In this document: positions 274 through 39,804 of the stretch, one piece after another | How the letters are laid out: each line of letters starts with the position of its first letter | Numbering within the stretch: position 1 is the stretch's first letter | Assembly: GCA_016283575.1 (NCBI GenBank) | Contig: JAEEND010000027.1 | Coordinates: 2,711 to 66,710 of the forward strand | DNA from: Lachnospiraceae bacterium | Lineage (GTDB): Bacteria > Bacillota > Clostridia > Lachnospirales > Lachnospiraceae | DNA: 64,000 nucleotides | Reading direction: 5' to 3' | Translations under genes and position numbers: made by a program | The notes under the pieces: generated by a model | What the model was told of the DNA's origin: nothing | The model's database searches: none | Seen by the model: only the letters and a program-made list of their open reading frames with translations

Positions 274-1797
274 TTATCCAAGTAAGCTGAGTACACCCTG
301 GTTACTCTGGTTGGACTGAGCAAGCATTGCCTGTCCTGCCTGAGCTAAGATATTGTTGTTTGAGTACTTAACCATCTCGGTTGCCATATCTGTATCACGA
401 ATAGCGGATTCAGCAGATGTGGTATTTTCAACTACGTTATCAAGGTTGTTGATGGTGTGCTCAAGTCTGTTCTGAACTGCACCGAATCTTGAACGTTGGG
501 TTGATACGGACTGAATTGCCTCCTTAACTGCATCGATACACTTAAGAGCCTTGTCGGCTGTGGTAACATCGGCTGCATTAAATGCTTTAAGAGATTCTGT
601 TCTCCAATCATATGTGTAACCCTTTAATCCAAGAGCTGCACCGCTTAAGTTTCCGAGTTCAAGTTCGATCTGGTTATTCTTTGTAGCGTCAGCGCCTACA
701 TGAAGGCTGAGCTTTGTATTATCTAATGTAATATCGGCACCTTTTCCGAGGTATCCATTCTTTAAACTCCAGCTGCCTGTATAATCTTCAGATACTGCTG
801 CGTGAGGTCCGGCAACGGTATCACCGTCGAATATGGCAAGTTTACCGTTTCCGCCACCGATATTTACGTGGTGGGAGGTACCCATACAATATGCATTTTT
901 GTTACCTGCGGTATATGTTGTGCTGTTAAGCTTAGCATATGCCGAAAGTACTTTATTGGTTACATCTGTTCCGTTATTACATCCGGAGATGCTTACCCAC
1001 ATTGTGGTTCCACTTGAGTCATTGGCAAATGCCTTATAGCCATCGCTGTTAAGTCCGGGTGTATCATCATCTACAAATTTCAAGCTGTAATAATTATCGC
1101 AAAGAGTACATGTAGCTGATATTCCTGTACCCATAAGCTTTTCAACATCAGCCGCGGAATTGATACCTGTCAAATCCAAGAATCCTGCAGCATAGGAGCC
1201 ACCGGCGTTAACGGCTGTACCGTTCTGATCACCGCCGACAATATTTCCCGTACCTACTACGTTAGATAACTGAGTGCCTGTATATACGCCAAATACATGG
1301 TTTTCAAATAAATCTACATTGGTTCCGATAAGTTCTTCGGACAGTGCTCCGAAGAATCCGTCTTTTTCTTTTACATCATAAGAACCATCCAGCAGATATG
1401 TTTCGTTAAACTTGGTAGTTGCCGCTACTCTGTCTATTTCTGACATGATCTGGTCTACTTCGTTCTGGATGTATCCACGATCATCAGAAGAAAGAGTTCC
1501 GTTAGCCGCTTTAACTGCCAACTCGTTCAATCTCTGAAGCATGTCCTGAACTTCGTTTAATGCACCTTCTGCTGTCTGTACCATTGAGATACCATCCTGT
1601 GCATTTGAAGATGCCTGTGTAAGACCACGAATCTGCTTACGCATCTTTTCACTGATTGACAAACCTGCTGCATCATCAGCTGCTCTGTTAATCTTAAATC
1701 CCGAGGATAATTTCTCGGTGGAATCCGCCTGTGACTTAACTGTTAAATTAAGCATGCGGTTTGAATTCATTGCTGTAAGGTTGTGCTGTACTACCAT
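274..1797 (-). CDS. fliC: Flagellin, long class L (507 aa) with Cys/His-containing central insert
   Basis: Flagellin D0/D1 termini (MVVQHNLTAMNSNRML..AADDAAGLSISEKM; ..TQRSRFGAVQNRLEHTINNLDN..AQAGQAMLAQSNQSNQGVLSLLG). Central residues ~135-365 are shared only with the other two long copies. Confidence 0.95.
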   Translation of the reverse strand: MVVQHNLTAMNSNRMLNLTVKSQADSTEKLSSGFKINRAADDAAGLSISEKMRKQIRGLTQASSNAQDGISMVQTAEGALNEVQDMLQRLNELAVKAANGTLSSDDRGYIQNEVDQIMSEIDRVAATTKFNETYLLDGSYDVKEKDGFFGALSEELIGTNVDLFENHVFGVYTGTQLSNVVGTGNIVGGDQNGTAVNAGGSYAAGFLDLTGINSAADVEKLMGTGISATCTLCDNYYSLKFVDDDTPGLNSDGYKAFANDSSGTTMWVSISGCNNGTDVTNKVLSAYAKLNSTTYTAGNKNAYCMGTSHHVNIGGGNGKLAIFDGDTVAGPHAAVSEDYTGSWSLKNGYLGKGADITLDNTKLSLHVGADATKNNQIELELGNLSGAALGLKGYTYDWRTESLKAFNAADVTTADKALKCIDAVKEAIQSVSTQRSRFGAVQNRLEHTINNLDNVVENTTSAESAIRDTDMATEMVKYSNNNILAQAGQAMLAQSNQSNQGVLSLLG

Positions 1798-1831
1798 ATT
1801 ATTCTCCTTTCTTGTCCCGCACTATCACGGG

Positions 1832-1845
1832 TGGAATCCTTTCCA
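1832..1845 (-). promoter_or_regulatory. Leader hairpin with GGA in the loop (CsrA-site-like)
   Basis: Minus strand tggaAAGGAttcca: 5-bp stem with AGGA loop. A second GGA lies in the SD (AAAGGAG). Confidence 0.45.
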
Positions 1846-1865
1846 TAACGTGCCCCTCACTATAT

Positions 1866-1892
1866 ATATCGTCAATGCTTTATCATTCTAAA
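1866..1892 (-). promoter_or_regulatory. SigD-like promoter (good -10, weak -35)
   Basis: Minus strand TTTA-N15-GACGATAT. The -10 matches 7/8 but the -35 is TTTA instead of TAAA. Confidence 0.4.
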
Positions 1893-2001
1893 GTAATAAG
1901 CCCGTTAATTATTCGTTAATAATTCATGTTTCTTTTGCACAACAAAAAAGCACAGATCCTTCGATCCGTGCTTTTTGTATATTCAAGTCTGTATTATCAC
2001 T

Positions 2002-2119
2002 ATAATAAACCGCTTCGCGTTTTATTATCGGTCGATAGAATAATCCTCAGGCTTATTCTATCTCTACAATAGACCTTCGGTCTATTGTCATCGCTTGAAT
2101 AATCCCTCCGGGATTATTC
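2002..2119. repeat. Four tandem AT-clamped hairpins downstream of flagellin 2119-3705
   Basis: ataataaaccgcTTCgcgttttattat (2002-2028), agaataa..ttattct (2037-2059), CAATAGACC-TTCG-GGTCTATTG (2067-2087), GAATAATCCC-TCC-GGGATTATTC (2097-2119). Confidence 0.8.
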
Positions 2120-3705
2120 TATCTCAGTAAAGAAAGTACACCCTGATTGGACTGGTTAGCCTGTGCAAGCATTGCCTGTCCTGCCTGAGCTAAGATGTTA
2201 TTGTTAGAATATCTAACCATCTCAGTTGCCATATCCGTATCTCTGATTGCAGATTCAGCAGATGTGGTATTTTCAACTACGTTATCAAGGTTCTTAATGG
2301 TGTGCTCAAGTCTGTTCTGAACTGCACCGAATCTTGAACGCTGTGTGGAAACTGCCTGTATCGCATCTTTAACTGCATTGATACAATCAAGGGCTTTTGC
2401 TGCCGTAGTTACATCGGCTGCGTTAAATTCTTTAAGAGATTCTGACTTCCAGTCATATTTAAAGCCCTTAAGTCCTAAAGCAACACCGCTTAAGTTACCG
2501 AGTTCAAGTTCAATCTGGTTATTCTTAGTAGCATCTGCGCCAACATGAAGATTAAGCTTTGTATTTTCCGGAGTTACTTCAGCACCTTTTCCAAGGTAAC
2601 CGTTCTGTAATCCGTAATAGCTCGAATAATCATCCTGTCCGACTTGGTTGGCCCAGGACTTGCTGGTCTTATTATCTGAGTCAAATAATACCAAAGTGCT
2701 TCCGCCACCGCCGATACATACGTGATGCCAGCTGGATCCTGTATCAGAGAGCGTCTGTCCTGCATTTGATGCGCTGCCGACAGATCCCATGTTATAAGCT
2801 GCCTTGGAACCTGCGGTATGGGTTGTTCCATTATAGCGGGCATAGGCGCTTAATACTGTATCTACTACATCCGATCCGTTATTACAGGAGGAAATATCTA
2901 TCCAAAGATTCTGTCCGCCCGCGGAGTTACCAACTACTTTATAGCCGTTAGCATTCAGTCCTAAAGAAGGATCGTCATCAACCAGTTTGATTGAAAAGAA
3001 AGTTTCACAAGCACCACAGGTTGCGGATAATCCGGTTCCTATAAGTCTTTCGACATCGCTCTTTGTGGTAAGTGATGAAAGATCAAAGCTTGTTGCCGCA
3101 AATCCGGCTCTGCTGGATGTTGCCAGATCCGAACCGTTGCTACCATTAACTATGTTATCTCCGACTAATCCTGCCATTTCGGAACCTGATTTCCAGTCAA
3201 ATACGTGATTGGTAAATAATGACTCGTTGGTTCCTATAATATCTTCGGACAAAGCACCGTAGAAACCATCTTTTTCTTCTACGGAATATTTACCGTTAAG
3301 AAGATAGGTTTCATTAAATTTGGTGGTTGCCGCTACTCTGTCAATTTCTGACATTATCTGATCTACTTCGTTCTGAATGTAACCGCGGTCATCTGAAGAA
3401 AGAGTTCCGTTTGCTGCTTTAACAGCCAGCTCGTTCATTCTCTGAAGCATATCCTGCACTTCATTTAAAGCGCCTTCAGCTGTCTGCACCATGGAAATAC
3501 CGTCCTGCGCGTTTGCGGAAGCCTGTGTAAGACCTCTTATCTGCTTACGCATCTTTTCACTTATGGATAATCCTGCTGCGTCGTCAGCTGCTCTGTTTAT
3601 CTTATATCCCGATGATAATTTTTCGGTGGAACCTGCCTGACCCTTAACCGTTATGTTAAGCATACGGTTCGAATTTATGGCTGTGAGATTATGTTGTACT
3701 ACCAT
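2119..3705 (-). CDS. fliC: Flagellin, long class L (528 aa)
   Basis: Flagellin termini plus the same central insert motifs as 274-1797 (SATCGACETFFSIKLVDDD, ISSCNNGSDV, WHHVCIGGG). Confidence 0.95.
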   Translation of the reverse strand: MVVQHNLTAINSNRMLNITVKGQAGSTEKLSSGYKINRAADDAAGLSISEKMRKQIRGLTQASANAQDGISMVQTAEGALNEVQDMLQRMNELAVKAANGTLSSDDRGYIQNEVDQIMSEIDRVAATTKFNETYLLNGKYSVEEKDGFYGALSEDIIGTNESLFTNHVFDWKSGSEMAGLVGDNIVNGSNGSDLATSSRAGFAATSFDLSSLTTKSDVERLIGTGLSATCGACETFFSIKLVDDDPSLGLNANGYKVVGNSAGGQNLWIDISSCNNGSDVVDTVLSAYARYNGTTHTAGSKAAYNMGSVGSASNAGQTLSDTGSSWHHVCIGGGGSTLVLFDSDNKTSKSWANQVGQDDYSSYYGLQNGYLGKGAEVTPENTKLNLHVGADATKNNQIELELGNLSGVALGLKGFKYDWKSESLKEFNAADVTTAAKALDCINAVKDAIQAVSTQRSRFGAVQNRLEHTIKNLDNVVENTTSAESAIRDTDMATEMVRYSNNNILAQAGQAMLAQANQSNQGVLSLLR

Positions 3706-3741
3706 AACTTACTCCTTTCTCTCCCGGCTTAATGACCGGGT

Positions 3742-3755
3742 GGGCTTCCTTGCCC
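3742..3755 (-). promoter_or_regulatory. Leader hairpin with GGA in the loop (CsrA-site-like)
   Basis: Minus strand gggcAAGGAAgccc, about 40 nt upstream of the ATG. The SD is AAAGGAG. Confidence 0.45.
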
Positions 3756-3820
3756 TTGGTAGTATGGGTACTGATTACCCATCTTAGGTTTCACCCCTCA
3801 TTCCCTTTTTTATTTCAAGC

Positions 3821-3859
3821 CCTATCCGGTCAGCCATGCAGCAGGCTGGCCAGGATAGG
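3821..3859 (-). other. GC-rich imperfect stem-loop after flagellin 3885-5042
   Basis: cctatccggtcagcc / ggctggccaggatagg arms. No U-tract follows on the coding strand. Confidence 0.4.
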
Positions 3860-3884
3860 AAGAGAAATAGTAGTACCGTATTTA

Positions 3885-5042
3885 TTATCTGAGTAATGCA
3901 AGAACACCCTGGTTAGACTGGTTAGCCTGTGCAAGCATTGCCTGTCCTGCCTGACTGAGGATATTGTTGTTAGAATATCTAACCATCTCAGTTGCCATAT
4001 CTGTATCACGGATAGCAGATTCAGCGGATGTTGTATTTTCAACTACGTTGTCAAGGTTGTTGATCGTATGATCAAGTCTGTTCTGTACAGCACCGAGTGC
4101 AGATCTCTGTGTAGAAATCTTCTGGATTGCTGTCTTGATGGTTTCGATTGCTGTAAGAGCATTCTTATCATCAGTACCATCAACTTTAAGACCGTCAACA
4201 CCGATTCCCTTAGCACTCATAGCGTTTAAAGAAACACTAATCTGGTTGTTGGAAGTAGCATCAGCACCTACATGAAGCTTAAGTTCAAGAGCACCTACGC
4301 CTGTACCTGAAGCTTCCATCACAGCCAATTTAGCAGTTGTAGAAGCATCATTGTCGCTTGCGCCAAGTACTGTTGTTCCGGCTGTTACTGCTAATGCCGT
4401 TGCACTTAAAGTATAACCATCTGTTGCGTTTCCTGTTTTGGTATAGAGTTTTCCTACTGCTTCTGCTGTAGCCTTACCGTTCTGATCAATGTAATTGGAA
4501 AGTGCGTTTTCAGAAATCCAGTTACCATTTGCATCATAGTAAACTTTGGTAGGATCCTTAATACCGCCATCTTTAGCAAAAGCGGCTGCAGTATATGAAA
4601 ACTGCTTAACCTTAGTTGCAGAAGAATCACCCTTAAGTAAGTAAGTTTCGTTGAACTTTGTGGTTTCAGCGACACGGTCGATTTCTGTTACTAACTGATC
4701 GATTTCGTTCTGGATATAAGAACGGTCATCTGTTGAGTTTGTACCGTTAGCGGATTTAACTGCAAGTTCGTTCATTCTCTGAAGCATGTCCTGAACTTCG
4801 TTTAATGCGCCTTCAGCTGTCTGTACTGCTGAAATACCATCCTGTGCGTTAGCGGAAGCCTGTGTAAGACCTCTGATCTGTTTACGCATCTTTTCGGAAA
4901 TTGATAATCCTGCTGCATCATCAGCTGCTCTGTTAATCTTAAAACCGGATGAAAGTTTCTCAGTTGACTTTGCCTGTGTCTTTGTATTGACATTAAGCAT
5001 ACGGTTTGAGTTCATCGCTGTTAAGTTGTGTTGTACTACCAT
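3885..5042 (-). CDS. fliC: Flagellin, short class S (385 aa, Cys-free)
   Basis: Flagellin termini (..RSALGAVQNRLDHTINNLDN..QSNQGVLALLR). Variable centre contains YDANGNWISENAL. Confidence 0.95.
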   Translation of the reverse strand: MVVQHNLTAMNSNRMLNVNTKTQAKSTEKLSSGFKINRAADDAAGLSISEKMRKQIRGLTQASANAQDGISAVQTAEGALNEVQDMLQRMNELAVKSANGTNSTDDRSYIQNEIDQLVTEIDRVAETTKFNETYLLKGDSSATKVKQFSYTAAAFAKDGGIKDPTKVYYDANGNWISENALSNYIDQNGKATAEAVGKLYTKTGNATDGYTLSATALAVTAGTTVLGASDNDASTTAKLAVMEASGTGVGALELKLHVGADATSNNQISVSLNAMSAKGIGVDGLKVDGTDDKNALTAIETIKTAIQKISTQRSALGAVQNRLDHTINNLDNVVENTTSAESAIRDTDMATEMVRYSNNNILSQAGQAMLAQANQSNQGVLALLR

Positions 5043-5075
5043 AATTGTTTCCTCCTTGAATGGTTGTAATCTTTA

Positions 5076-5093
5076 CGCGATATCCTTATCGCG
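5076..5093 (-). promoter_or_regulatory. Leader hairpin with GGA in the loop (CsrA-site-like)
   Basis: Minus strand cgcgatAAGGATatcgcg. The SD is CAAGGAGGAA, about 25 nt downstream. Confidence 0.5.
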
Positions 5094-5101
5094 ATTTTTG
5101 T

Positions 5102-5132
5102 GGAACCGCCACCGGGTTTCGGTGGCAGTTCC
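5102..5132 (-). other. GC-rich stem-loop between flagellin genes
   Basis: ggaaccgccaccgg-gttt-c(c)ggtggc(a)gttcc. On the coding strand it is followed by ACAAAAAT, not a U-tract. Confidence 0.5.
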
Positions 5133-5158
5133 TATTGTTTTTGGTTAAGTGACTAATC

Positions 5159-6316
5159 TTATCTCAGAAGAGAAAGAACGCCCTGGTTAGACTGGTTAGC
5201 CTGTGCAAGCATTGCCTGTCCTGCCTGACTGAGGATGTTATTGTTAGAATATCTAACCATCTCAGTTGCCATATCTGTATCACGGATAGCAGATTCAGCG
5301 GATGTAGTATTTTCAACTACGTTGTCAAGGTTGTTGATTGTGTGATCAAGTCTGTTCTGTACAGCACCGAGTGCAGATCTCTGAGTAGAAATCTTCTGGA
5401 TTGCTGCTTTAATAGTTTCGATTGCTGATAATGCATTAGTATCATCAGCGCCATCAACCTTAAGACCGTCAACACCAATACCTTCAGCTGACATTGAAGA
5501 AATGCTAACTGAAATCTGGTTATTTGATGTAGCATCAGCACCAACGTGAAGCTTTAATGTAAGAGCTCCAAGTCCGGAAGCTGTACCTTCTTTCTCGATT
5601 GCTGCCTTAACGATTGTTTCAGCGCCTGCTGCAGGTGAAGCCTTAGCAATATCTGTACCAACCGCAATTTCAGTTCTGGTTCCGGCTTTGAATGCTGCCT
5701 CATCAGCGTAACCGTACATAACCTTTGTGGTCTTTCCTGTTGCTGTGTCAACGTAATCGTTTAAAGCATTTTCAGAAATCCAGTTACCGTTTGCATCATA
5801 AAGAACCTTTGCCTTACCTGCATCTGTAAGTTCTACTGCACCGTTTGCTGTAAGGTTTCCGCTCTTATATGTAACCTGGTTAACCTTTGTAGCACTCTTG
5901 TCACCCTTAAGTAAGTAGGTTTCGTTGAACTTTGTGGTTTCAGCTACACGATCTATTTCTGTTACTAACTGATCGATTTCGTTCTGGATGTAAGTACGGT
6001 CGTCAGTAGAGTTGGTGCCGTTAGCGGACTTAACTGCAAGTTCGTTCATTCTCTGAAGCATGTCCTGAACTTCGTTTAATGCGCCTTCAGCTGTCTGCAC
6101 TGCTGAGATACCATCCTGAGCATTTGCGGAAGCCTGTGTAAGACCTCTGATCTGCTTACGCATCTTTTCACTGATGGATAAGCCTGCTGCATCATCCGCT
6201 GCACGGTTAATCTTATAACCGGATGAAAGTTTCTCAGTTGACTTTGCCTGTGTCTTTGTGTTGACATTCAGCATACGATTTGAGTTCATCGCTGTTAAGT
6301 TGTGTTGTACTACCAT
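5159..6316 (-). CDS. fliC: Flagellin, short class S (385 aa, Cys-free)
   Basis: Flagellin termini. The centre differs from 3885-5042 but keeps LYDANGNWISENAL. Confidence 0.95.
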   Translation of the reverse strand: MVVQHNLTAMNSNRMLNVNTKTQAKSTEKLSSGYKINRAADDAAGLSISEKMRKQIRGLTQASANAQDGISAVQTAEGALNEVQDMLQRMNELAVKSANGTNSTDDRTYIQNEIDQLVTEIDRVAETTKFNETYLLKGDKSATKVNQVTYKSGNLTANGAVELTDAGKAKVLYDANGNWISENALNDYVDTATGKTTKVMYGYADEAAFKAGTRTEIAVGTDIAKASPAAGAETIVKAAIEKEGTASGLGALTLKLHVGADATSNNQISVSISSMSAEGIGVDGLKVDGADDTNALSAIETIKAAIQKISTQRSALGAVQNRLDHTINNLDNVVENTTSAESAIRDTDMATEMVRYSNNNILSQAGQAMLAQANQSNQGVLSLLR

Positions 6317-6350
6317 AATTATTTCCTCCTTGAATGGTTGTGTAAAAAAT

Positions 6351-6368
6351 CACGATATCCATATCGTG
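6351..6368 (-). promoter_or_regulatory. Leader hairpin with GGA in the loop (CsrA-site-like)
   Basis: Minus strand cacgataTGGAtatcgtg: 7-bp stem with UGGA loop. The SD is CAAGGAGGAA. Confidence 0.5.
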
Positions 6369-6419
6369 GCTAAGGGGCTAAAACCCTAAATAACTAATAG
6401 ATTAAAGCTTGGTTACCGG

Positions 6420-6438
6420 GGCGCTGCTAAGCAGCGCC
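6420..6438 (-). other. GC-rich stem-loop between flagellin genes
   Basis: GGCGCTGC-taa-GCAGCGCC, a perfect 8-bp stem with no U-tract on the coding strand. Confidence 0.5.
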
Positions 6439-6456
6439 GCCGATAGTTGGTCATGC

Positions 6457-7740
6457 TTATCCAAGTAAGCTGAGTACACCCTGATTTGACTGGTTAGCCT
6501 GTGCAAGCATTGCCTGTCCTGCCTGAGCTAAGATGTTGTTGTTAGAATATCTAACCATCTCAGTTGCCATATCAGTATCACGGATACTGGATTCAGCAGA
6601 TGTAGTATTTTCAACTACGTTATCAAGGTTGTTGATCGTGTGATCAAGTCTGTTCTGTACAGCACCGAGTGCGGATCTCTGTGTGGAAATCTTCTGGATT
6701 GCTGCTTTGATGGTTTCGATTGCATCAAGTGCGTTGCTGTCATCAGCGCCGTCAACCTTAAGGCCGTTAACGCCGATACCTGTTGCGCTCATAGCTGCGA
6801 GATCAACAGAAATCTGGTTGTTAGATGTAGCATCAGCACCTACGTGAAGCTTAAGAGTAAGATCGTTTGGAATTGATCTTGTTCCTACGAAATTAGCCTT
6901 AACCATTGTAGTAGGATTGAATGCGATCTTTCCTTCGGTATCAAGGAATACTGTACCTGCCTTGCCATCCTGGAAAGTTCCGTCGTTCTTAAAAATAGAA
7001 TCAAGCGCGTTGCTGGAGTATCTGTTGCCGTTTGCATCATAGAGGTTTGCTCTTGTTGCTTCGGTAAATTCAACAGTCTTACTTCCTGCAGTAATCTTTG
7101 CAGTATCACCTGCCTGGAAAGTACCGGCATAGGTTCCAGCTCCGATTACTGTAGCAGCATCTCCACCTGCGTGGTTTGCAGTTGCATTGAACCAGTTCGT
7201 ACCATCAAATACAAATGTTGCGTCAGCTGCAGCTGCATTTGTAAGAGTTCCGGAAAGAGCTGTTGTACTCTTTGCATATGTTGTAGCTGTACTATAAGCT
7301 GCAACTGTCTGAGTTCCGCTCTTATCTCCTTTAAGAAGATAAGTTTCGTTGAACTTTGTGGTTTCTGCTACTCTGTCGATTTCGGACACGAGCTGATCGA
7401 TTTCGTTCTGGATGTAAGTACGGTCATCAGTAGAGTTTGTACCGTTAGCTGCTTTAACTGCAAGTTCGTTCATTCTCTGAAGCATGTCCTGAACTTCGTT
7501 TAATGCGCCTTCAGCTGTCTGTACTGCTGAAATACCATCCTGTGCGTTAGCGGAAGCCTGTGTAAGACCTCTGATCTGCTTACGCATCTTTTCGGAAATT
7601 GATAATCCTGCTGCATCATCTGCTGCACGGTTGATCTTAAATCCGGATGAAAGTTTCTCAGTTGACTTTGCCTGTGTCTTTGTATTGACATTAAGCATAC
7701 GGTTTGAGTTCATCGCCGTTAAGTTGTGTTGTACTACCAT
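6457..7740 (-). CDS. fliC: Flagellin, short class S (427 aa, Cys-free)
   Basis: Flagellin termini. The centre contains TFVFDGTNWF and LYDANGNRYSSNAL. Confidence 0.95.
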   Translation of the reverse strand: MVVQHNLTAMNSNRMLNVNTKTQAKSTEKLSSGFKINRAADDAAGLSISEKMRKQIRGLTQASANAQDGISAVQTAEGALNEVQDMLQRMNELAVKAANGTNSTDDRTYIQNEIDQLVSEIDRVAETTKFNETYLLKGDKSGTQTVAAYSTATTYAKSTTALSGTLTNAAAADATFVFDGTNWFNATANHAGGDAATVIGAGTYAGTFQAGDTAKITAGSKTVEFTEATRANLYDANGNRYSSNALDSIFKNDGTFQDGKAGTVFLDTEGKIAFNPTTMVKANFVGTRSIPNDLTLKLHVGADATSNNQISVDLAAMSATGIGVNGLKVDGADDSNALDAIETIKAAIQKISTQRSALGAVQNRLDHTINNLDNVVENTTSAESSIRDTDMATEMVRYSNNNILAQAGQAMLAQANQSNQGVLSLLG

Positions 7741-7774
7741 AATTGTTTCCTCCTTGAAATTGTCATATGGTTTT

Positions 7775-7792
7775 CACGATATCCTTATCGCG
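7775..7792 (-). promoter_or_regulatory. Leader hairpin with GGA in the loop (CsrA-site-like)
   Basis: Minus strand cgcgatAAGGATatcgtg. The SD is CAAGGAGGAA. Confidence 0.5.
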
Positions 7793-7813
7793 TTGTTACT
7801 GTGATGGTAATAC

Positions 7814-7837
7814 CCGCTACCGGTTTCCCGGTAGCGG
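7814..7837 (-). other. GC-rich stem-loop between flagellin genes
   Basis: CCGCTACCGG-tttc-CCGGTAGCGG, a perfect 10-bp stem with no U-tract on the coding strand. Confidence 0.5.
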
Positions 7838-7898
7838 AGCATTCAAATCATTTGATTACCACGGAGATAATTCTCCAAGTTCCTTACCTACCTGTTGA

Positions 7899-8972
7899 TT
7901 AGCCAAGTAAGCTGAGAACACCCTGGTTAGACTGGTTAGCCTGTGCAAGCATTGCCTGTCCTGCCTGACTGAGGATGTTATTGTTAGAATATCTAACCAT
8001 CTCAGTTGCCATATCTGTATCACGGATAGCAGATTCAGCGGATGTTGTGTTTTCAACTACGTTGTCAAGGTTGTTGATTGTGTGATCAAGTCTGTTCTGT
8101 ACAGCACCGAGTGCGGATCTCTGAGTAGAAATCTTCTGGATTGCTGCCTTGATGGTTTCGATTGCATTGAGTGCATTTGTGTCATCAGCACCATCTACCT
8201 TAAGGCCGTTAACTCCAATTCCCTTAGCGCTCATTGCGTTAAGATCAACTGAAATCTGGTTGTTGGATGTTGCGTCTGCACCAACATGAAGCTTAAGAGT
8301 AAGAGGTCCGCTGTAAGCGTTAGCGTTATCTGCTGTAATCTTTGCATAAGCTGCATTAGCTGCGTATTCAGTGCCTGCTGCATTATACAGTTTCTTTCCG
8401 TCTGCATATGTTGTACCATTCTTAAAATAGTCAGCAAGTGCATTCTCAGAAATCTTGTTGCCGTTTGCATCATATAATGCATTATCCTTGGTGGCTTCGT
8501 AATCAGCAGGATCAACTGCAGCTGCATACTTGAAAGGTGTTACAGTAGTGCTCTTGTCACCCTTAAGTAAGTAGGTTTCGTTGAACTTTGTGGTTTCTGC
8601 TACTCTGTCAATTTCAGATACAAGCTGATCGATTTCGTTCTGGATGTAAGTACGGTCATCTGTTGAGTTTGTACCGTTAGCGGACTTAACTGCAAGTTCG
8701 TTCATTCTCTGAAGCATGTCCTGAACTTCGTTTAATGCGCCTTCAGCTGTCTGTACTGCTGAGATACCATCCTGTGCATTTGCAGAAGCCTGTGTAAGAC
8801 CTCTGATCTGCTTACGCATCTTTTCGGAAATTGATAATCCTGCTGCATCATCTGCTGCACGGTTGATCTTAAATCCTGAAGAAAGCTTCTCAGTTGACTT
8901 TGCCTGTGTCTTTGTGTTGACATTGAGCATACGATTTGAGTTCATCGCTGTTAAATTGTGTTGTACTACCAT
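7899..8972 (-). CDS. fliC: Flagellin, short class S (357 aa, Cys-free)
   Basis: Flagellin termini. It has the shortest variable centre, with LYDANGNKISENAL. Confidence 0.95.
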   Translation of the reverse strand: MVVQHNLTAMNSNRMLNVNTKTQAKSTEKLSSGFKINRAADDAAGLSISEKMRKQIRGLTQASANAQDGISAVQTAEGALNEVQDMLQRMNELAVKSANGTNSTDDRTYIQNEIDQLVSEIDRVAETTKFNETYLLKGDKSTTVTPFKYAAAVDPADYEATKDNALYDANGNKISENALADYFKNGTTYADGKKLYNAAGTEYAANAAYAKITADNANAYSGPLTLKLHVGADATSNNQISVDLNAMSAKGIGVNGLKVDGADDTNALNAIETIKAAIQKISTQRSALGAVQNRLDHTINNLDNVVENTTSAESAIRDTDMATEMVRYSNNNILSQAGQAMLAQANQSNQGVLSLLG

Positions 8973-9007
8973 ATTTTTTTCCTCCTTGATGATAGATAGT
9001 TAGTTAC

Positions 9008-9023
9008 CAGGCTTCCTTGCCTG
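9008..9023 (-). promoter_or_regulatory. Leader hairpin with GGA in the loop (CsrA-site-like)
   Basis: Minus strand caggcAAGGAAgcctg. The SD is CAAGGAGGAA. Confidence 0.45.
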
Positions 9024-9030
9024 TCGTTGG

Positions 9031-9113
9031 ATAATTAACCTGGCGGTTAATTATCATGTATAATCAACCTTTCGGTGGATTATCGTGTATGATCAACCCT
9101 TTCGGGAGATTAT
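9031..9113. repeat. Three tandem AT-clamped hairpins
   Basis: ATAATTAACC-tggc-GGTTAATTAT (9031-9054), ataatcaacc-tttc-ggtggattat (9060-9083), atgatcaaccc-tttc-gggagattat (9089-9113). Confidence 0.8.
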
Positions 9114-9296
9114 CCTAAGTCATATTTCAGAAACAAAAATAAACGAAAATCTTAATCTTCGCCTCGGATAGTAGTTTTTACTTAAATTGGGGGTGGGAAA
9201 TAAAGTCACGAATAAGAAATGCGATGCATTCCTCGTGTAAAAATAATCTAGAAACATCCTCCATGATGTAAAAACAACCTCCGTGTTGTTATATCG

Positions 9297-9325
9297 ATTA
9301 TACTATTTAATATTCTTTTTGTACA
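9297..9325 (-). promoter_or_regulatory. Possible sigma-A-type promoter inside the 523-bp flagellin spacer
   Basis: Minus strand TGTACA-N17-TATAAT (-35 at 9320-9325, -10 at 9297-9302). Confidence 0.35.
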
Positions 9326-9378
9326 GTACTCCTAATTGTGTGCACCGTTGATAAATGTACCAAATGTTGGGATTTTCC

Positions 9379-9400
9379 CGGTTCAGGTTTCCCTGAACCG
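9379..9400 (-). other. GC-rich stem-loop after flagellin 9496-10779
   Basis: CGGTTCAGG-tttc-CCTGAACCG, a perfect 9-bp stem with no U-tract on the coding strand. Confidence 0.5.
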
Positions 9401-9495
9401 AGTTTATTATCCCACATGATGATTAATATCTTATTAAAATTAAAAGAAATTAATCTTGAATAACCCTTTAAGAATTATTCATATACAATCAGCTA

Positions 9496-10779
9496 TTAAC
9501 CAAGTAAACTAAGTACACCCTGATTGGTCTGGTTAGCCTGTGCGAGCATTGACTGTCCTGCCTGAGCAAGGATGTTATTGTTCGAATATCTAACCATTTC
9601 AGTTGCCATATCTGTATCACGGATACCGGATTCAGCAGATGTGGTATTTTCAACTACGTTATCAAGGTTGTTGATTGTGTGGTCCAGTCTGTTCTGAACT
9701 GCACCGAGTGCAGATCTCTGAGTGGAAATCTTCTGGATTGCTGACTTGATGGTCTCAATCGCATAACGAGCATTTGTATCATCAGCGCCGTCTACTTTAA
9801 GATCTTTAACGCCGATACTCTTAGCGCTCATAGATTCCAAAGTAACAGAAATCTGGTTGTTTGATGTTGCGTCAGCACCTACATGAAGTTTAAGGGTTAA
9901 TGCATCGGTTAAATCCTTGGTTGCTGTAGGTAAATAGTTAGCGAGGTTAGCAGCACGTAACTGTGTGCCCTTTTCGTCGATATAAACCTTAGCATTAGTC
10001 TTAAGAGAAACTACTCCTGCATCACTTACATCGAAGTATTTATCAAGACCGTTATCAGGGATTCTGTTTCCGTTTGAGTCGTATAAAGCTGCGCCATATT
10101 CGAATGTAGCTTCATCAAAATGAGCCTTCTTGGATGCTGCTTCGTATACGAGTCTGTCGCCGGCCTTAGCATTAGCGATATCTGCTACACCATAAGCGGT
10201 GAAGTTTGCTACAGCTGCAGAATCTGTGCTTCCTTCTTCAAACCAAGCTGTTCCGTCAAATACGAAAGTCTTGTCTGCGGTTGCTGTTCCTGCTGTAAAT
10301 GTAGCTGTTGCTGCAGCATCGGTAACTGCCTTAGCTTTTAAGGAATACTTTGCGTTAGCATCTGTTCCCTTAAGTAAGTAAGTTTCGTTGAACTTTGTTG
10401 TCTCAGCTACACGATCAATTTCAGAAACAAGCTGATCGATTTCGTTCTGGATATAGGTACGGTCATCAGTAGAGTTGGTGCCGTTAGCTGCTTTAACTGC
10501 AAGTTCGTTCATTCTCTGAAGCATGTCCTGAACTTCGTTTAATGCACCTTCAGCTGTCTGTACTGCTGAAATACCATCCTGTGCGTTAGCGGAAGCCTGT
10601 GTAAGACCTCTGATCTGCTTACGCATCTTTTCACTGATTGATAAGCCTGCTGCATCATCTGCCGCACGGTTAATCTTGTAACCGGATGAAAGCTTTTCTG
10701 TTGACTTTGTCTGAGACTTAACCGTAAGGTTTAACATACGGTTAGAATTCATTGCTGTTAAGTTGTGTTGTACTACCAT
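9496..10779 (-). CDS. fliC: Flagellin, short class S (427 aa from the MVVQ start, Cys-free)
   Basis: The ORF track starts at 10794 (MEEKIM...). That upstream ATGGAGGA is actually the SD for the conserved MVVQHNL start at 10779. Confidence 0.93.
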   Translation of the reverse strand: MVVQHNLTAMNSNRMLNLTVKSQTKSTEKLSSGYKINRAADDAAGLSISEKMRKQIRGLTQASANAQDGISAVQTAEGALNEVQDMLQRMNELAVKAANGTNSTDDRTYIQNEIDQLVSEIDRVAETTKFNETYLLKGTDANAKYSLKAKAVTDAAATATFTAGTATADKTFVFDGTAWFEEGSTDSAAVANFTAYGVADIANAKAGDRLVYEAASKKAHFDEATFEYGAALYDSNGNRIPDNGLDKYFDVSDAGVVSLKTNAKVYIDEKGTQLRAANLANYLPTATKDLTDALTLKLHVGADATSNNQISVTLESMSAKSIGVKDLKVDGADDTNARYAIETIKSAIQKISTQRSALGAVQNRLDHTINNLDNVVENTTSAESGIRDTDMATEMVRYSNNNILAQAGQSMLAQANQTNQGVLSLLG

Positions 10780-10808
10780 TATTTTTTCCTCCATGAAAAA
10801 TTGTTCTA

Positions 10809-10824
10809 CACGATTCCATTCGTG
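10809..10824 (-). promoter_or_regulatory. Leader hairpin with GGA in the loop (CsrA-site-like)
   Basis: Minus strand cacgaATGGAAtcgtg. The SD is CATGGAGGAA. Confidence 0.45.
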
Positions 10825-10850
10825 CGTTAAAATTAGCTAATTGTATTTGT

Positions 10851-10927
10851 ATAATAATTTTTTGGCTACGCCAAAAAAGTTATTATCGTGTATAATAATG
10901 TTCCGGCTAAGCTGAAACAGTTATTAT
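10851..10927. repeat. Two tandem AT-clamped hairpins
   Basis: ataataattttttgg-ctacg-ccaaaaaagttattat (10851-10886) and ataataatgtt..aacagttattat (10892-10927). A further GC-rich hairpin lies around 10940-10980. Confidence 0.7.
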
Positions 10928-10993
10928 CGATGTTAATGTCTATAGCCACCCGGCCCTTAAAGGGCCGCGGTGATTATAGAATTGTGTTTTTAA

Positions 10994-12565
10994 TTATCCG
11001 AGTAAACTGAGTACTCCCTGGTTAGCCTGGTTGGACTGAGCGAGCATTGCCTGTCCTGCCTGAGCTAAGATGTTGTTATTGGAATAAGATACCATTTCCT
11101 TAGCCATATCTGTATCACGGATTGCAGATTCAGCTGCTGTTGTGTTTTCAACTACGTTATCAAGGTTGTTGATGGTATGTTCAAGTCTGTTCTGAACTGC
11201 ACCGAATCTTGAACGCTGTGTTGATACGGACTGAATAGCTGACTTAACTGCATCTATGCAGAGAAGAGCTTTTTCAGCTGTAGTAACGTCTGCAAGATTT
11301 CTTTCTGCTACGTTTTCTGTTCTCCAGTCATACTTGTAACTCTTTAATCCTAATGCAAATGTAGAAAGGTTACCAAGTTCAAGTTCGATCTGGTTGTTGC
11401 TTGTTGCATCTGCGCCAACGTGAAGCTTCATCTTTTCGTTAACTTCTTTAGCTTCAACGCCCTTGCCTACGTAACCGTTAGCAAAACCGCCGGAACCCAT
11501 ATATCCTTCTGCCTGAACACCGGCACCGCTACCACCATCTGTATCAAAAAGAACAAGTTTACCTGTCTGATCGTTACCGCCGATTGCTACGTGATGCCAG
11601 CTAGTGTTTGTATCGTTAAGGATCGCTCCGTCTGTTCTGCCGGTTCCACCCATGTTGTAAGAAGCTGCTCCACCTGAATAAGTGGTTCCGTTATATAATG
11701 CATATGCCTTCATAACCGCATTAACAACGTCTTTACCATTATTACATCCGGATATATCAATCCAAAGAGTATCACCACCCTGAGCATTACCGTGAGCTTT
11801 GTAGCCGTTAGCGTTTAATCCAAGATCTGCGCCGTCATCTACAAACTTAATGCTGTAGAATGTGGAGCAAGCCATACATGTTGCGGAAATACCGCAGCCA
11901 TATAATTCTTCGACGCCTGCCTTAGTTGTTACATTTGATAAATCAAGGAATCCTGCTGCATAAGTCCCTGAACTGAGAGTAATGTCTGAACCGTTATCAC
12001 CATTAACAGTAGTCGCACCTGCTACGGCTGTAACTTCCGCCTGACTATGTGTACCTAGTGAATGGTTTGTAAGAAGGTCTGCGTTGGTTCCGACAATAGT
12101 TTCGTCCAACTGTCCCTGGAAGCCGCCATCTCCTTCTTCAACTTCATAAGTACCGTTTAACAAATATGTTTCGTTGAACTTTGTAGTATGAGCTACACGA
12201 TCGATTTCTGTCATGAGCTGATCTACTTCGTTCTGGATGTATCCGCGGTCATCAGAACTTAATGTGCCGTTAGCTGCCTTAACTGCAAGTTCGTTCATTC
12301 TCTGAAGCATGTCCTGAACTTCGTTTAATGCACCTTCAGCTGTCTGTACCATTGAGATACCGTCCTGTGCGTTGGCAGATGCCTGTGTAAGACCACGAAT
12401 CTGCTTACGCATCTTTTCACTGATTGATAAGCCTGCTGCATCGTCGGCTGCACGGTTAATGCGATAACCGGACGAAAGCTTTTCTGTTGAACCCGCCTGT
12501 GACTTAACTGTTAAGTTAAGCATTCGATTGGAGTTCATTGCTGTTAGGTTGTGTTGTACTACCAT
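10994..12565 (-). CDS. fliC: Flagellin, long class L (523 aa)
   Basis: Flagellin termini plus class-L insert motifs (SATCMACSTFYSIKFVDD, ISGCNNGKDV, WHHVAIGG, LLCIDAVK). Confidence 0.95.
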   Translation of the reverse strand: MVVQHNLTAMNSNRMLNLTVKSQAGSTEKLSSGYRINRAADDAAGLSISEKMRKQIRGLTQASANAQDGISMVQTAEGALNEVQDMLQRMNELAVKAANGTLSSDDRGYIQNEVDQLMTEIDRVAHTTKFNETYLLNGTYEVEEGDGGFQGQLDETIVGTNADLLTNHSLGTHSQAEVTAVAGATTVNGDNGSDITLSSGTYAAGFLDLSNVTTKAGVEELYGCGISATCMACSTFYSIKFVDDGADLGLNANGYKAHGNAQGGDTLWIDISGCNNGKDVVNAVMKAYALYNGTTYSGGAASYNMGGTGRTDGAILNDTNTSWHHVAIGGNDQTGKLVLFDTDGGSGAGVQAEGYMGSGGFANGYVGKGVEAKEVNEKMKLHVGADATSNNQIELELGNLSTFALGLKSYKYDWRTENVAERNLADVTTAEKALLCIDAVKSAIQSVSTQRSRFGAVQNRLEHTINNLDNVVENTTAAESAIRDTDMAKEMVSYSNNNILAQAGQAMLAQSNQANQGVLSLLG

Positions 12566-24830: not shown

Positions 24831-25200
24831 TATCCCTATATGGATTTGAAGCGTAGATTGGGATAGTTTTTCTTGAATCGAATTGTTTAGATGGATATTT
24901 CTATCCCTATACGGATTTTGCGTGCGTTTTGGGATAGATTTTATCTGAATAAACTACTTTCTATAAGTGAAGATGGAAATATTTATCCCAATACGGCTCT
25001 AGAAGGGCGTATTGGGATACTTTTTCTTCCGGTGTAGGTAGTGATGGTTATATTTCTATCCCAATTGTGCCCTCAAAAGCATATAGGGATACGAGCACCC
25101 AAAATAGATGAGTGAAGATGCTTGCTTCTATCCCAATCAGGCCCTCAAAAGCATATAGGGATACGAGCACCCAAAATAGATGAGTGAAGATGCTTGCTTT
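24831..25200. repeat. Array of five ~72-bp units, each with a TATCCCWAT..N17-19..AT(T/A)GGGATA palindrome
   Basis: Palindromes lie at 24831-24865, 24902-24936, 24984-25019, 25057-25091 and 25129-25163. The last two units form a near-perfect 72-bp tandem duplication. Confidence 0.85.
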
Positions 25201-34585: not shown

Positions 34586-35500
34586 TTATTTCATTGCTTC
34601 TTTTACGCCGGTGGCAACAGATGCAAGGCTCTGGATCTCTGAAGGAATGATGATCTTAGTAGCCTGTCCGTTGGCAGCTTCCTTGAAGGCGTCGTAGCTT
34701 TTAAGTGTAACAACCTGGTCTGTGGAAAGTCCTGCTTCTCTAAGTAAGTTGATGCTGTCGGCTTCAGCTTTCTTCAATGCTCTGATACCGTCTGCTTCAG
34801 CTTCCTTGTGGAGTCTTATGGATTCAGCATGACCTTCTGCTTCTTTTACCAGCTGGATCTTCTGTGCATCAGCTCTGAGAATTGCAGATTCTTTTTCACC
34901 TTCTGCTTTAAGGATGGCGGATTTCTTTTCACCTTCCGCAATAAGGATCTGCTCACGGCGTTCACGCTCTGCCTTCATCTGCTTTTCCATAGCTTCACGG
35001 ATAGCTGTAGGAGGCATGATGTTCTTAACTTCCACACGTCCGACCTTGATTCCCCAAGGGTCCGTTGCGTCATCAAGAACTGTCTGCATCTTTGAATTTA
35101 TGATCTCACGGGATGTGAGTGTTTCATCAAGTTCAAGCTCACCGATGATGTTACGAAGGGTGGTGGCTGTTAAGCTTTCAAGTGCAAGTACGGGATTTTC
35201 AACGCCGTACGCGAAAAGCTTTGAATCAAAAATTCTGTAAAACACAACCGTGTCGATCTGCATTGTAACGTTATCTTTGGTAATAACGGGCTGAGGCGGG
35301 AAGTCCGCAATCTGCTCTTTTAAAGAAACTCTTCTTACGATCCTGTCGATAACAGGGAACTTTACTCTGAAACCTGCATCCCATACTGTATGGAATTTAC
35401 CGAGACGTTCAATTACGTAAGCATGTGTCTGAGGCACAATTCGGATGTTGGGGATGATGATAATACATAAAATAGCAATAATGATAATAACCCAGTGCAT
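34586..35500 (-). CDS. SPFH/band-7 (stomatin-like) membrane protein
   Basis: N-terminal TM segment, then [20 protein letters not shown] and an Ala/Glu-rich coiled tail. The start was set at the ATG at 35500 (GGAG 8 nt upstream); the ORF-track TTG start at 35539 is less likely. Confidence 0.85.
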
Positions 35501-35545
35501 AATGTTTATCTCCTCTCTTGTGGCGTAGCCACGAACCAAAAAGTA

Positions 35546-35577
35546 TATAATAAACCGCTTCGCGTTTTATTATCGGT
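35546..35577. repeat. AT-clamped hairpin, identical 32-mer to 2001-2032
   Basis: tataataaaccgcttcgcgttttattatcggt occurs verbatim at both loci. A second imperfect hairpin follows (to about 35605). Confidence 0.85.
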
Positions 35578-35647
35578 ATCAGAATGATTCTGTCAGAATC
35601 ACTCTAATTCTAGTATATTTCGCACCAAAAAGAAAGAGTCTGTTTTT

Positions 35648-36116
35648 GTATCCCTATATGGATTTGAAGACCGGATTGGGATACTTTCTTCAACCTGAAA
35701 GGGTGTTTTCTATGAATCTGTATCCCAGTTTGATGGAAGCTTCCGTATTGGGATACGCCAGACAATCTGAAAGGGTGTAGGCAATGATAAACTATCCCAG
35801 ATGGTTGCTTATTTTCATATTGGGATACTTTTTTCAACTTGAAGGGTGTTTTCCTTGAATCTGTATCCCAGTTTAATGGAAATTTCCGTATTGGGATACG
35901 TGAGACAATATGAAAGGGTGTAGGCAATGATAAACTATCCCAGATGGTTGCTTATTTTCATATTGGGATACTTTTTTCAACTTGAAGGGTGTTTTCCTTG
36001 AATCTGTATCCCAGTTTGATGGAAGCTTCCGTATTGGGATACGGGAGACAAAACTAAAAGGGGTGTGACAGTGAAAAACTATCCCAGTTTGATGGAAATT
36101 TCCGTATTGGGATACG
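35648..36116. repeat. Array of seven 72-bp units with a GTATCCCA..N..TTGGGATAC palindrome, and a 143-bp higher-order repeat
   Basis: Unit starts are 35648, 35720, 35792, 35863, 35935, 36006 and 36079. Two unit subtypes alternate, and the linkers share GAAAGGGTGT. Confidence 0.9.
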
Positions 36117-36149
36117 TGAGACAAAACTAAAGGGGGACAGCAACAAAAT

Positions 36150-36169
36150 CCCGGCGGAGTGCCGCCGGG
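36150..36169 (-). terminator. Terminator after the phosphoesterase gene (bidirectional shape)
   Basis: CCCGGCGG-agtg-CCGCCGGG, flanked by A-rich sequence on one side and T-rich on the other (ATTTTGTTG on the coding strand). Confidence 0.65.
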
Positions 36170-36176
36170 TTTATTT

Positions 36177-37115
36177 TTAGTATACAATTATCTCGCCTAT
36201 ACTTCCCATAAATTCGGGAGTAAAGACGTGTTCGATGCCATATTCGCTAAACCGGGTTTCAAAGCTTTCATGAAGATGAGCTGCAGGTATCAGGAATGGG
36301 GTATCGATATCATAGAGAATCTCTAAAAACGAACCGGTAACTTCATTAGGCACCTGCTTCGCGTTCTTGCCCCAGTAAGTTAAGCCTCCGCGATGCTCCA
36401 TGGTGAATTCTTCAAGTTCACCGGGCACTTCTTCTTCAAAAGGGATATGAGTCGCGATTATAAAGGTTTTATTGGGCTTCGAAAGAATCTCTCTTGCTTC
36501 TTCAACAGGCCCGGGAAGAATATCCTGGTCGCTTGGATTCATGCCAAGTATCACAACATCACCCACTTCTCCTAAAAGAACCTTGGAATTATCGCATACA
36601 CCATCCTGGCGATCCGTGGCTTTATAGTTGTCTTCATCTTCAAGCCAATATGGGTATCTGTCGTGGTCCGAGCGTATATACATATAGGGCGCCTTTATCT
36701 TAGCTAAGCCTTCTTTTAAGGCTTCCGTATTGGCGCGTGAATTAAAGTCAACAATGTCTCCGCCGAAGATCACGAAATCTGGGTTATATTCATTGATAAG
36801 ATCGGGAAGCATCTGCCATTTTTCATATGTGGTGGTGCCGTTTGATGAAAAGGCCTCAATACGCCCTTTAATATTCTCCTGCTCCGACTCTTTAACTTCA
36901 TCATTTAAGACCTGCAGGTGAACATCGTTTATATAAAGAATGTGAATTTCTTTTTCTGTTTTATTATCAATAAATGGTGAGTCAAGTGAGACGGTTTCCA
37001 TGGTAAAACCTGCCGCAGCAAAAGGCGAGCGGGCCTCTTGTCGCGTGCAGGCTACCATGAATAGAGTGAATATGAAGAATAAAATAACTGTTTTCTTAAT
37101 AAGTGTGTTTCTCAT
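36177..37115 (-). CDS. Calcineurin-like metallophosphoesterase, probable lipoprotein
   Basis: Signal/lipobox ..LFMVAC; motifs INDVHL, FGGDIVD, ATHIPF, AAHLHE. It overlaps the GH3 stop by 4 nt. Confidence 0.8.
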   Translation of the reverse strand: MRNTLIKKTVILFFIFTLFMVACTRQEARSPFAAAGFTMETVSLDSPFIDNKTEKEIHILYINDVHLQVLNDEVKESEQENIKGRIEAFSSNGTTTYEKWQMLPDLINEYNPDFVIFGGDIVDFNSRANTEALKEGLAKIKAPYMYIRSDHDRYPYWLEDEDNYKATDRQDGVCDNSKVLLGEVGDVVILGMNPSDQDILPGPVEEAREILSKPNKTFIIATHIPFEEEVPGELEEFTMEHRGGLTYWGKNAKQVPNEVTGSFLEILYDIDTPFLIPAAHLHESFETRFSEYGIEHVFTPEFMGSIGEIIVY

Positions 37116-39733: not shown

Positions 39734-39804
39734 AGCAGAGTACGGGAATCGAACCCGCCTCTCAAGCTTGGGAAGCTCGCATACTACCGATGTACTAACC
39801 CTGC
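39734..39804 (-). tRNA. tRNA-Gly (anticodon CCC), no encoded CCA
   Basis: Folded by hand. Acceptor GCAGGGT/ACTCTGC, D arm GTAC-ATCGGTA-GTAT, anticodon arm CGAGC-TTCCCAA-GCTTG, 4-nt variable loop, T arm GCGGG-TTCGATT-CCCGT, discriminator U. Confidence 0.85.

Follow-up and report, generated by a model that had tools for sequence, protein, structure and literature searches.

Results

Genes and signals around the first array

The stretch of Lachnospiraceae DNA that we analyzed (hereafter, the window) is 64 kb long, and 46 of its 48 open reading frames lie on the minus strand. A run of palindromic repeats, array 1, occupies the interval between the stop codon of a Metallophos gene (36177), with its accompanying hairpin, and the promoter of an operon comprising Band_7, argF, DUF6145 and coaX. 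The sigma-70-like promoter of this operon (35569–35596, minus strand; CTGACA-16-GATAAT, 10/12) stands about 53 bp from the first repeat unit. On the other side, the G+C-rich hairpin at 36150–36169, whose 8-bp stem is made up entirely of G-C pairs, fits a bidirectional intrinsic terminator: It closes the Metallophos gene on the minus strand, and its T-run is better on the plus strand. An earlier reading of this DNA, made from the sequence alone, had the array filling the whole gap, which is not quite the case, since about 110 bp of promoter and leader (35540–35648) separate it from the Band_7-side edge, and a linker-like tail and the terminator hairpin lie at the opposite end.

Pfam and PADLOC scans covering 46 of the window's open reading frames detected no cas gene, no transposase, and no Y1_Tnp/RAYT gene, the last being a gene type that the sequence-only reading had proposed to look for. 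At the gathering threshold, the only Rfam match in the window is a tRNA (39734–39804), and an E-value search of 35500–36250 returned three chance-level matches, all with E of 0.4 or above. The Band_7 protein has its nearest homologues in Lachnospiraceae.

The window also holds eight tandem flagellin paralogues (274–12565), which are 57–73% identical to the first, along with open reading frames that match the flagellar families FliD, FliS, FlaG, FlgK, FliW, FlgN and FlgM. Intergenic gaps among the flagellin genes contain tandem repeats of their own, at 9031–9114 (29 bp × 2.9) and 10848–10937 (41 bp × 2.2). Elsewhere there are one AbiD/Abi_2-type abortive-infection gene and two matches to the PADLOC model 'mad3'.

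Organization of the two arrays

Array 1 consists of seven TATCCC-N23-GGGATA palindromes within 35649–36114, all read on the plus strand. The cores start at 35649, 35721, 35793, 35864, 35936, 36007 and 36080, i.e., at successive spacings of 72, 72, 71, 72, 71 and 73 bp, which confirms the seven units at 71- to 73-bp intervals described previously. The pattern TATCCCA-N15-30-TGGGATA occurs seven times in the window against 0.00 expected from window shuffles, and the looser TATCCC-N15-35-GGGATA occurs 12 times against 0.09 expected; the surplus of five is accounted for by a second array, which the earlier note had overlooked.

The units of array 1 fall into types that differ in their interiors. 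The terminal unit, closest to the Band_7 promoter, is of type A (TATCCCTATATGGATTTGAAGACCGGATTGGGATA; 35649–35683), and it is followed by a B unit (TATCCCAGTTTGATGGAAGCTTCCGTATTGGGATA; 35721–35755), a C unit (TATCCCAGATGGTTGCTTATTTTCATATTGGGATA; 35793–35827), a B' unit in which the centre GGAAATTTCC replaces GGAAGCTTCC (35864–35898), a C unit with the same sequence as unit 3 (35936–35970), a B unit with the same sequence as unit 2 (36007–36041), and a final B' unit (36080–36114), behind which lies the linker-like tail (36115–36149). In B units, the inner palindrome (GGAAGCTTCC or GGAAATTTCC) does not share its centre with the outer palindrome, an offset like that of a hairpin with a bulge. Tandem Repeats Finder assigns to array 1 a period of 72 (6.0 copies) and a period of 143 (3.1 copies, 89% matches); the latter reproduces the higher-order repeat of the sequence-only reading and runs over 35675–36115 on the plus strand, each copy being a B unit, a linker, a C unit and a second linker. 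The linkers of this higher-order repeat read GAGACAA-N4-TGAAAGGGTGT or TTCAACyTGAAGGGTGT. The alternation of B and C that had been noted is present, and so is the linker motif GAA(A)GGGTGT, except in the last linker, which is AAAGGGGGACA.

Array 2 (24831–25163, plus strand) belongs to the same family and has five units, which start at 24831, 24902, 24984, 25057 and 25129 and are thus spaced 71, 82, 73 and 72 bp apart. It is flanked by the stop codon of a hybrid histidine-kinase gene and by the start of a 630-aa gene whose best match in Pfam (E = 0.014) falls short of the cut-off and is not significant. Within any one array all units have the same orientation (TATCCCAG...TATTGGGATA), and because both window arrays open with an A-type unit (TATCCCTATATGGATTTGAAG...GATTGGGATA), they share the same polarity. 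A search of the window with nhmmer, using an HMM built from the 12 units, found no lone units elsewhere.

A family of arrays in gut and rumen Lachnospiraceae

Array 1 is a member of an array family of gut and rumen Lachnospiraceae. The sequence-only reading had allowed that the element might be absent elsewhere, as a local slippage expansion; however, scans of public genomes and metagenomes recovered the family at about 50 loci, mostly from Lachnospiraceae. Genomes were scanned with a two-unit DNA pattern, using one genome per species, and a scan of a metagenome collection yielded 46 loci of three broad kinds: window-like arrays of up to 11 units, arrays with a 52-bp period, in which conservation is limited to the arms, and arrays of 73–74 bp. 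Arrays are intergenic at all loci, and several occur per metagenome contig set. The A-type unit of array 1 also opens the arrays of loci L029, L033, L038, L056 and L071. Repeats from Myxococcales (22 bp), Treponema (21 bp) and Chloroflexi that surfaced in the genome scan were set aside, having hexamers alone in common with this family. The two-unit pattern is absent from viral contigs, and the full-length form of the associated protein described below is absent from phage and plasmid collections; a phage origin was rejected on these grounds. We found no description of the family in Rfam, in protein-family libraries or in the literature.

A particularly regular form is found in a Lachnospiraceae metagenome-assembled genome (MAG) from sheep rumen, which contains five loci of exactly four units each (TTATCCCAAT-N15-17-ATTGGGATAA), spaced 71, 51 and 71 bp apart to give an element of about 230 bp. 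Because the motifs in linker 1 and linker 3 (GTTATGTAAnC and GGTTTACATAAC) are reverse-complementary, the four-unit element has a dyad-symmetric layout. Two of the five MAG arrays sit between convergent gene ends. The 72-bp linkers of L003, L004, L006, L011, L062 and L080 have the motif GGTTTACATAAC in common (reverse-complemented in linker 1), across lineages that differ in their palindrome arms. This motif may be a second recognition element; window-type arrays lack it and carry GAGACAA-N4-TGAAAGGGTGT instead.

Across the family, interiors and linkers have diverged, whereas the arms remain conserved. The interiors and linkers of B-type units are nonetheless common to unrelated loci, which indicates that whole units have been copied between loci. 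Unit number is polymorphic: The strain of locus L046 shares 99% identity with the window across the Metallophos gene and array 1 but has five units rather than seven, one 144-bp block fewer, and L018 has nine units where its counterpart in L036/L043 has 11. In L046 (1417–3022), a gene for a methyl-accepting chemotaxis protein replaces Band_7 after the common promoter and leader (window position about 35546), the breakpoint coming after a duplicated GATAATAAAgCGCGAAGCGGTTTAT hairpin segment.

We found neither a target-site duplication nor an empty site. Relatives whose Band_7 is 78–82% identical have a different upstream gene, LarC, and hence offer no orthologous empty site for comparison. The approximately 100 bp between unit A and the neighboring start codon show no homology across loci and therefore lie outside the element. 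Of the features of a MITE (terminal inverted repeats, a target-site duplication and a discrete length), the four-unit MAG elements show arm sequence at their start and finish, but no duplication or conserved flank was seen, and array length is variable.

Helical phasing and symmetric change of the arms

Over all loci, units are spaced only at 42–43, 51–54, 70–74 or 82–83 bp, with an additional spacing of 92 bp in L062; the search pattern constrained one pair per locus, to 49–81 bp, and left the remaining spacings free. With about 10.3 bp per helical turn, these classes equal 4, 5, 7, 8 and 9 turns. When the five distinct classes alone are counted as independent, although they are partly shared by descent and so not fully independent, and are compared with multiples of 10.0–10.8 bp, p is about 0.003. 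The earlier suggestion that a period of seven helical turns might suit cooperative protein binding gains support from this spacing rule, in that the spacings of independent lineages occur only at about 42, 52, 72, 83 and 92 bp. Moreover, the order 72-51-71 is retained in four lineages with differing arms (L003, L062, L064 and L080), and no other observation speaks as strongly as this, together with the phasing itself, for duplex DNA as the functional form, with all sites on one face.

The arms vary by lineage of the associated protein (TATCCC/GGGATA, TATCGC/GCGATA, GCTCCC/GGGAGC, GGGGTA/TACCCC), and their changes are always symmetric in both arms while the architecture stays constant. Compensatory changes occur at nine of the 12 arm positions, columns 4–9 having been fixed by the way in which loci were selected, and a free column just outside the arm core displays four pair types. 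Such pairing statistics fit a symmetric protein site and a hairpin alike, the core columns being preselected by the search pattern. At position 7, the two arms often carry a fixed T-T or A-A mismatch, and in most lineages the stems are 7–10 bp long, with loops of 15–20 nt and unpaired interiors.

A gene family adjoining the arrays

In several lineages, a protein family of about 255 aa (hereafter, the partner) is encoded directly beside an array. Homologues with 28–49% identity adjoin arrays at L003, L038/L071, L058, L062, L064-69, L074 and L080-83. Among the approximately 45 arrays found by DNA pattern alone, adjacency was observed at three distinct loci (L003, L038 and L058; L071, reached through a protein look-up, is the L038 locus again and is not counted separately), against a rough estimate of about 0.03 adjacencies expected by chance. 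At L038, a methyltransferase gene and an open reading frame of 254 aa are enclosed by a pair of inverted arrays, and in L071 (P0001) arrays lie on either side of this gene pair; the open reading frame of L003, which is 41% identical to the 254-aa frame of L038, ends 30 bp before its array, and in L058 a truncated homologue abuts the array.

The loci recovered from the protein side have the same architecture with other arms. L062 (P0003) has seven units with arms TATCGCAA/TTGCGATA at spacings of 71, 52, 71, 72, 92 and 72 bp, the synteny of L003, and the linker motif GGTTTACATAAC. L064-69 (P0040), inside a spoVA operon, has three units with arms GGGGTA/TACCCC (72, 51), and L080-83 (P0010) has five with arms GCTCCC/GGGAGC (72, 51, 70, 73) and both linker motifs. 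L074 (P0069) has about nine units at a 73-bp period, upstream of the partner gene. At L003, L062, L064 and L080, the partner gene has the array on its 3' side, and the gene neighborhood differs in each lineage. Gene and array are linked, and arm sequence co-varies with protein lineage. More distant homologues (L070, L072, L077 and L078) have no such array, or other short repeats only.

Several of these loci have additional repeats. Just before the L062 array, a 49-bp unit is present three times in tandem (4732–4891) and includes the last ~35 bp of the nuclease-like partner gene, and a 37-bp × 3 tandem repeat (5044–5154) adjoins the three-unit array of L064, where gene and array, set between spoVAC and spoVAD but on the other strand, look like an insertion. 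In L072 (4060–4320), a tandem repeat of about 41 bp with ACCACnGTGGT comes after the partner homologue P0091, whose cluster has more than 1000 member sequences; the repeat may be a different array geometry belonging to a different clade.

There is no copy of the partner gene within the window. From the relatives L038/L071, we infer that this genome would carry it elsewhere.

Sequence and predicted fold of the partner

Sequence comparison of the partner with Pfam, NCBIfam, PHROGs and PDB gave nothing useful, yet the family is large: A word-indexed search returned 677 matches, and an exhaustive search returned 3621 clusters (defined at 50% identity) at E ≤ 1e-30. Invariant in 69 members are R144-S145-K146-x-E148, P177-D178 and Y191-W192-E193, the last being part of a W-E-H motif. 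Members of the PD-(D/E)xK superfamily have an alpha-beta-beta-beta-alpha-beta core with E, (P)D and (D/E)xK as catalytic residues; here E148, P177-D178 and E193 are invariant, but the position of the canonical (D/E)xK lysine reads H-F (E-H-F), and K146 is invariant elsewhere. In the AlphaFold model (pLDDT 93.9), a helix with beta hairpins at the N-terminus precedes two long helices (residues 56–92 and 98–120) and a C-terminal alpha/beta domain. Foldseek gives only weak matches for the protein, to restriction-endonuclease folds (E about 0.25) and to prefoldin coiled coils.

Residues ~120–250 match the C-terminus of the PADLOC candidate PDC-S68 with E down to 1e-34, and the C-terminal domain has a weak match (7e-5) to a PADLOC PD-DEXK model. 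The same domain also forms the C-terminus of RecD-like helicases and AAA ATPases encoded on plasmids; in the plasmid and phage collections, it is this domain alone, in helicase genes, that is matched. Judged from the predicted structure and these matches, the partner is probably a dimerizing coiled coil joined to a PD-(D/E)xK nuclease-fold domain for DNA recognition and catalysis.

Discussion

We tentatively interpret the arrays as phased duplex-DNA sites of a cognate PD-(D/E)xK-type protein, i.e., as non-autonomous partners in the manner of REPIN/BIME and RAYT, and consider the chance that this is correct to be a little short of even. Array 1 and array 2 would then be orphan copies of a lineage-specific Lachnospiraceae array family, in which each unit is a 35- to 37-bp inverted repeat whose sequence would be constrained in the outer 8- to 10-bp arms only. 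Because the units are integral helical turns apart, the arms would all face the same side of the duplex. Binding by the partner, cleavage, and mobilization of repeats are parts of this interpretation that we infer: The arms would be the cognate sites of the ~255-aa coiled-coil and PD-(D/E)xK protein, presumably encoded once per genome, elsewhere, beside a 'master' array, and partner dimers would bind both arms of each palindrome and, once bound, would associate with one another along the array in a cooperative nucleoprotein complex. Given the conserved catalytic-type residues, the arms may be nicked or cleaved, which could lead to copying, gene conversion and dispersal of units, and the arrays may expand and shrink by unequal recombination in steps of 143–144 bp. 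The more specific proposal of a two-component system, in which each partner recognizes its own phased arrays (one adjacent to the gene, plus scattered orphans) and forms nucleoprotein assemblies with them, is one that we hold to be possible rather than probable.

The B units, with their offset nested palindromes and G-U strand asymmetry, look more like a single strand that folds on itself than like a symmetric site for a dimer. It is conceivable, if unlikely, that the array is transcribed in the A-to-B direction (plus strand) into a multi-hairpin noncoding RNA that sequesters an RNA-binding protein or is cut into small RNAs of hairpin size, with the nuclease-fold neighbor as a processing or binding partner. 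Unit 2 (type B) folds at −18.5 kcal/mol on the plus strand versus −12.7 on the minus strand, an advantage of about 6 kcal/mol that is due to G-U pairs, and Z-scores reach −5.5; because B units fold better on the plus strand, a hairpin function as RNA, an alternative that the sequence-only reading had raised, or as single-stranded DNA retains some probability. The bias recurs in array 2 and L033, whose units differ in sequence, the arms of L074 (GGGGCAAGT/ACTTGTCCC) pair through G-U on one strand only, and compensatory changes keep the inverted-repeat symmetry. At array 1, a weak plus-strand promoter-like site (35590–35619) points into the array, and the terminator at 36150–36169 has its better T-run on that same strand. 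However, such promoter-like sites are absent or at chance level at other arrays, Rfam gives no match at either the gathering or the E-value threshold, and most lineages have unpaired interiors, with no strand bias in the rumen and MAG arrays; in addition, arm position 7 is often a fixed T-T or A-A mismatch, and neither the 10-bp spacing steps nor the dyad-symmetric four-unit layout has an RNA rationale. Folding could instead matter in single-stranded DNA, as in REP elements, if the nuclease recognized the folded hairpin, its bulges included, during replication and excised and inserted 72-nt units beside existing ones, one by one. The imperfect B-unit hairpins with their asymmetric internal loop, the persistent strand asymmetry, the equality of period and unit length, the single nuclease-type gene adjoining arrays, and the whole units common to separate loci would all suit this model, which we nevertheless think is not likely to be right: Most lineages offer only 7- to 10-bp stems with 15- to 20-nt loops, and the model does not predict spacing steps of ~10 bp or the conserved 72-51-71 order. 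There is also no Y1_Tnp in the window, and the partner is PD-(D/E)xK-like rather than HUH; the single-strand hairpin transposases known to us are HUH enzymes, not PD-(D/E)xK proteins.

If the repeats are protein sites in duplex DNA, they could also be clustered operators of an ordinary transcription factor that controls Band_7/argF/coaX here and its own gene at the master locus. Sigma-70-like promoters lie 11–70 bp from unit A, phasing is compatible with cooperative repression or activation, and the A-type end is 93–122 bp from an outward gene start in six of the eight informative window-type loci, a proportion that is not significant. Against this, two of the five MAG arrays lie between convergent gene ends, four partner genes (L003, L062, L064 and L080) have the array on their 3' side, the neighboring genes are functionally unrelated, near-identical strains differ in unit number, and catalytic-type acidic residues are invariant in the partner; we regard the operator explanation as quite improbable. 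Hardly credible is the proposal that array 1 is a functionless product of local slippage or duplication, or a degenerate CRISPR array. The recent 143-bp tandem duplication and the copy-number difference between strains are what slippage would leave behind, but the same arms, unit length and spacing recur in array 2 and at about 50 loci in several genera, which contradicts this reading, and the arms have been conserved while interiors and linkers diverged; a degenerate CRISPR array is opposed by the lack of cas genes and of unique spacers.

The interpretation that we favor, phased duplex sites for the partner, places the arrays closest to the REP/BIME-RAYT systems, with which they have in common intergenic imperfect palindromes (~35 bp here, 20–40 bp in REPs) that are clustered, with characteristic linkers, and recur many times in a genome; the window has two arrays in its 64 kb, and a single MAG has five. 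As in BIME-2, alternating subtypes are amplified in tandem, and a single-copy nuclease-type gene adjoins its own repeats, whose sequence co-varies with the protein lineage. The sequence-only reading had named REP/BIME as the nearest analogue, and the comparison holds with respect to a nuclease-like partner gene; it fails in that the gene is not a RAYT and the units are in direct orientation. RAYT is an HUH/Y1 protein, whereas the partner here combines a coiled coil with a PD-(D/E)xK-like domain; successive REPs alternate in orientation (inverted) within a BIME, whereas units here are all direct; arms alone are conserved, with spacing quantized in helical turns; and the host belongs to the Firmicutes (Lachnospiraceae) rather than to the Proteobacteria.

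Plasmid centromeres and iterons also consist of tandem units with an inverted repeat at a fixed period: sopC of F has 12 units of 43 bp, each with an inverted repeat, and parC of R1 is comparable. Those arrays are bound cooperatively by a protein encoded beside them. In contrast, the arrays described here are chromosomal, multi-copy and at unrelated loci, their partner has a nuclease fold, and no ParA, ParB or ParR-type gene is adjacent, the flanks of array 1 being Metallophos, Band_7, argF and coaX. The rejection of DnaA boxes (TTATCCACA vs. TTATCCCAA) was made by eye, the CACA part not being conserved and T1 being variable.

The dimensions of array 1 (palindromes of 35–37 bp, 'spacers' of about 35 bp between them and a period of 72 bp) resemble those of a CRISPR array, but its anatomy is wrong: The 'repeat' interiors vary among types A, B and C, the 'spacers' recur as part of the 143-bp unit, there is no leader, and no Cas family was matched among the 46 window open reading frames by Pfam or PADLOC. 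The partner, too, is unrelated to Cas proteins. We therefore reject a CRISPR array, as the sequence-only reading did. TIGR-Tas systems reportedly comprise tandem interspaced guide RNA arrays with a Nop-domain Tas protein, and the arrangement of short conserved edges around variable segments is similar, most clearly in the 52-bp rumen arrays. However, window units are duplicated rather than diverse, unit size differs, and neither the partner family nor the window open reading frames gave a Nop/Tas match.

By analogy, the best-supported view is that this is a previously undescribed array family that would follow the logic of REP/BIME-RAYT with different parts. To our knowledge, REP/RAYT, described mostly in Proteobacteria, is the main example so far of a vertically inherited nuclease with its own intergenic repeats; a comparable nuclease-repeat partnership appears here in abundant gut and rumen Firmicutes, with an unrelated enzyme fold and with a spacing rule that points toward a nucleoprotein assembly on duplex DNA. 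The co-variation of arms and protein constitutes a natural specificity code, and the association with arrays provides a first functional handle on an unannotated protein family of thousands of clusters. The family would also account for CRISPR-like false positives in Lachnospiraceae genomes, and its fast-evolving length variants could serve for strain typing. Repeat mobilization, promoter insulation or regulation, and DNA organization are all options for its role in the cell. If the two-component reading is true, these arrays and their partner would represent either a new, non-HUH replicator made up of a nuclease and its repeats, or a chromosome-organizing or regulatory site system in Clostridia.
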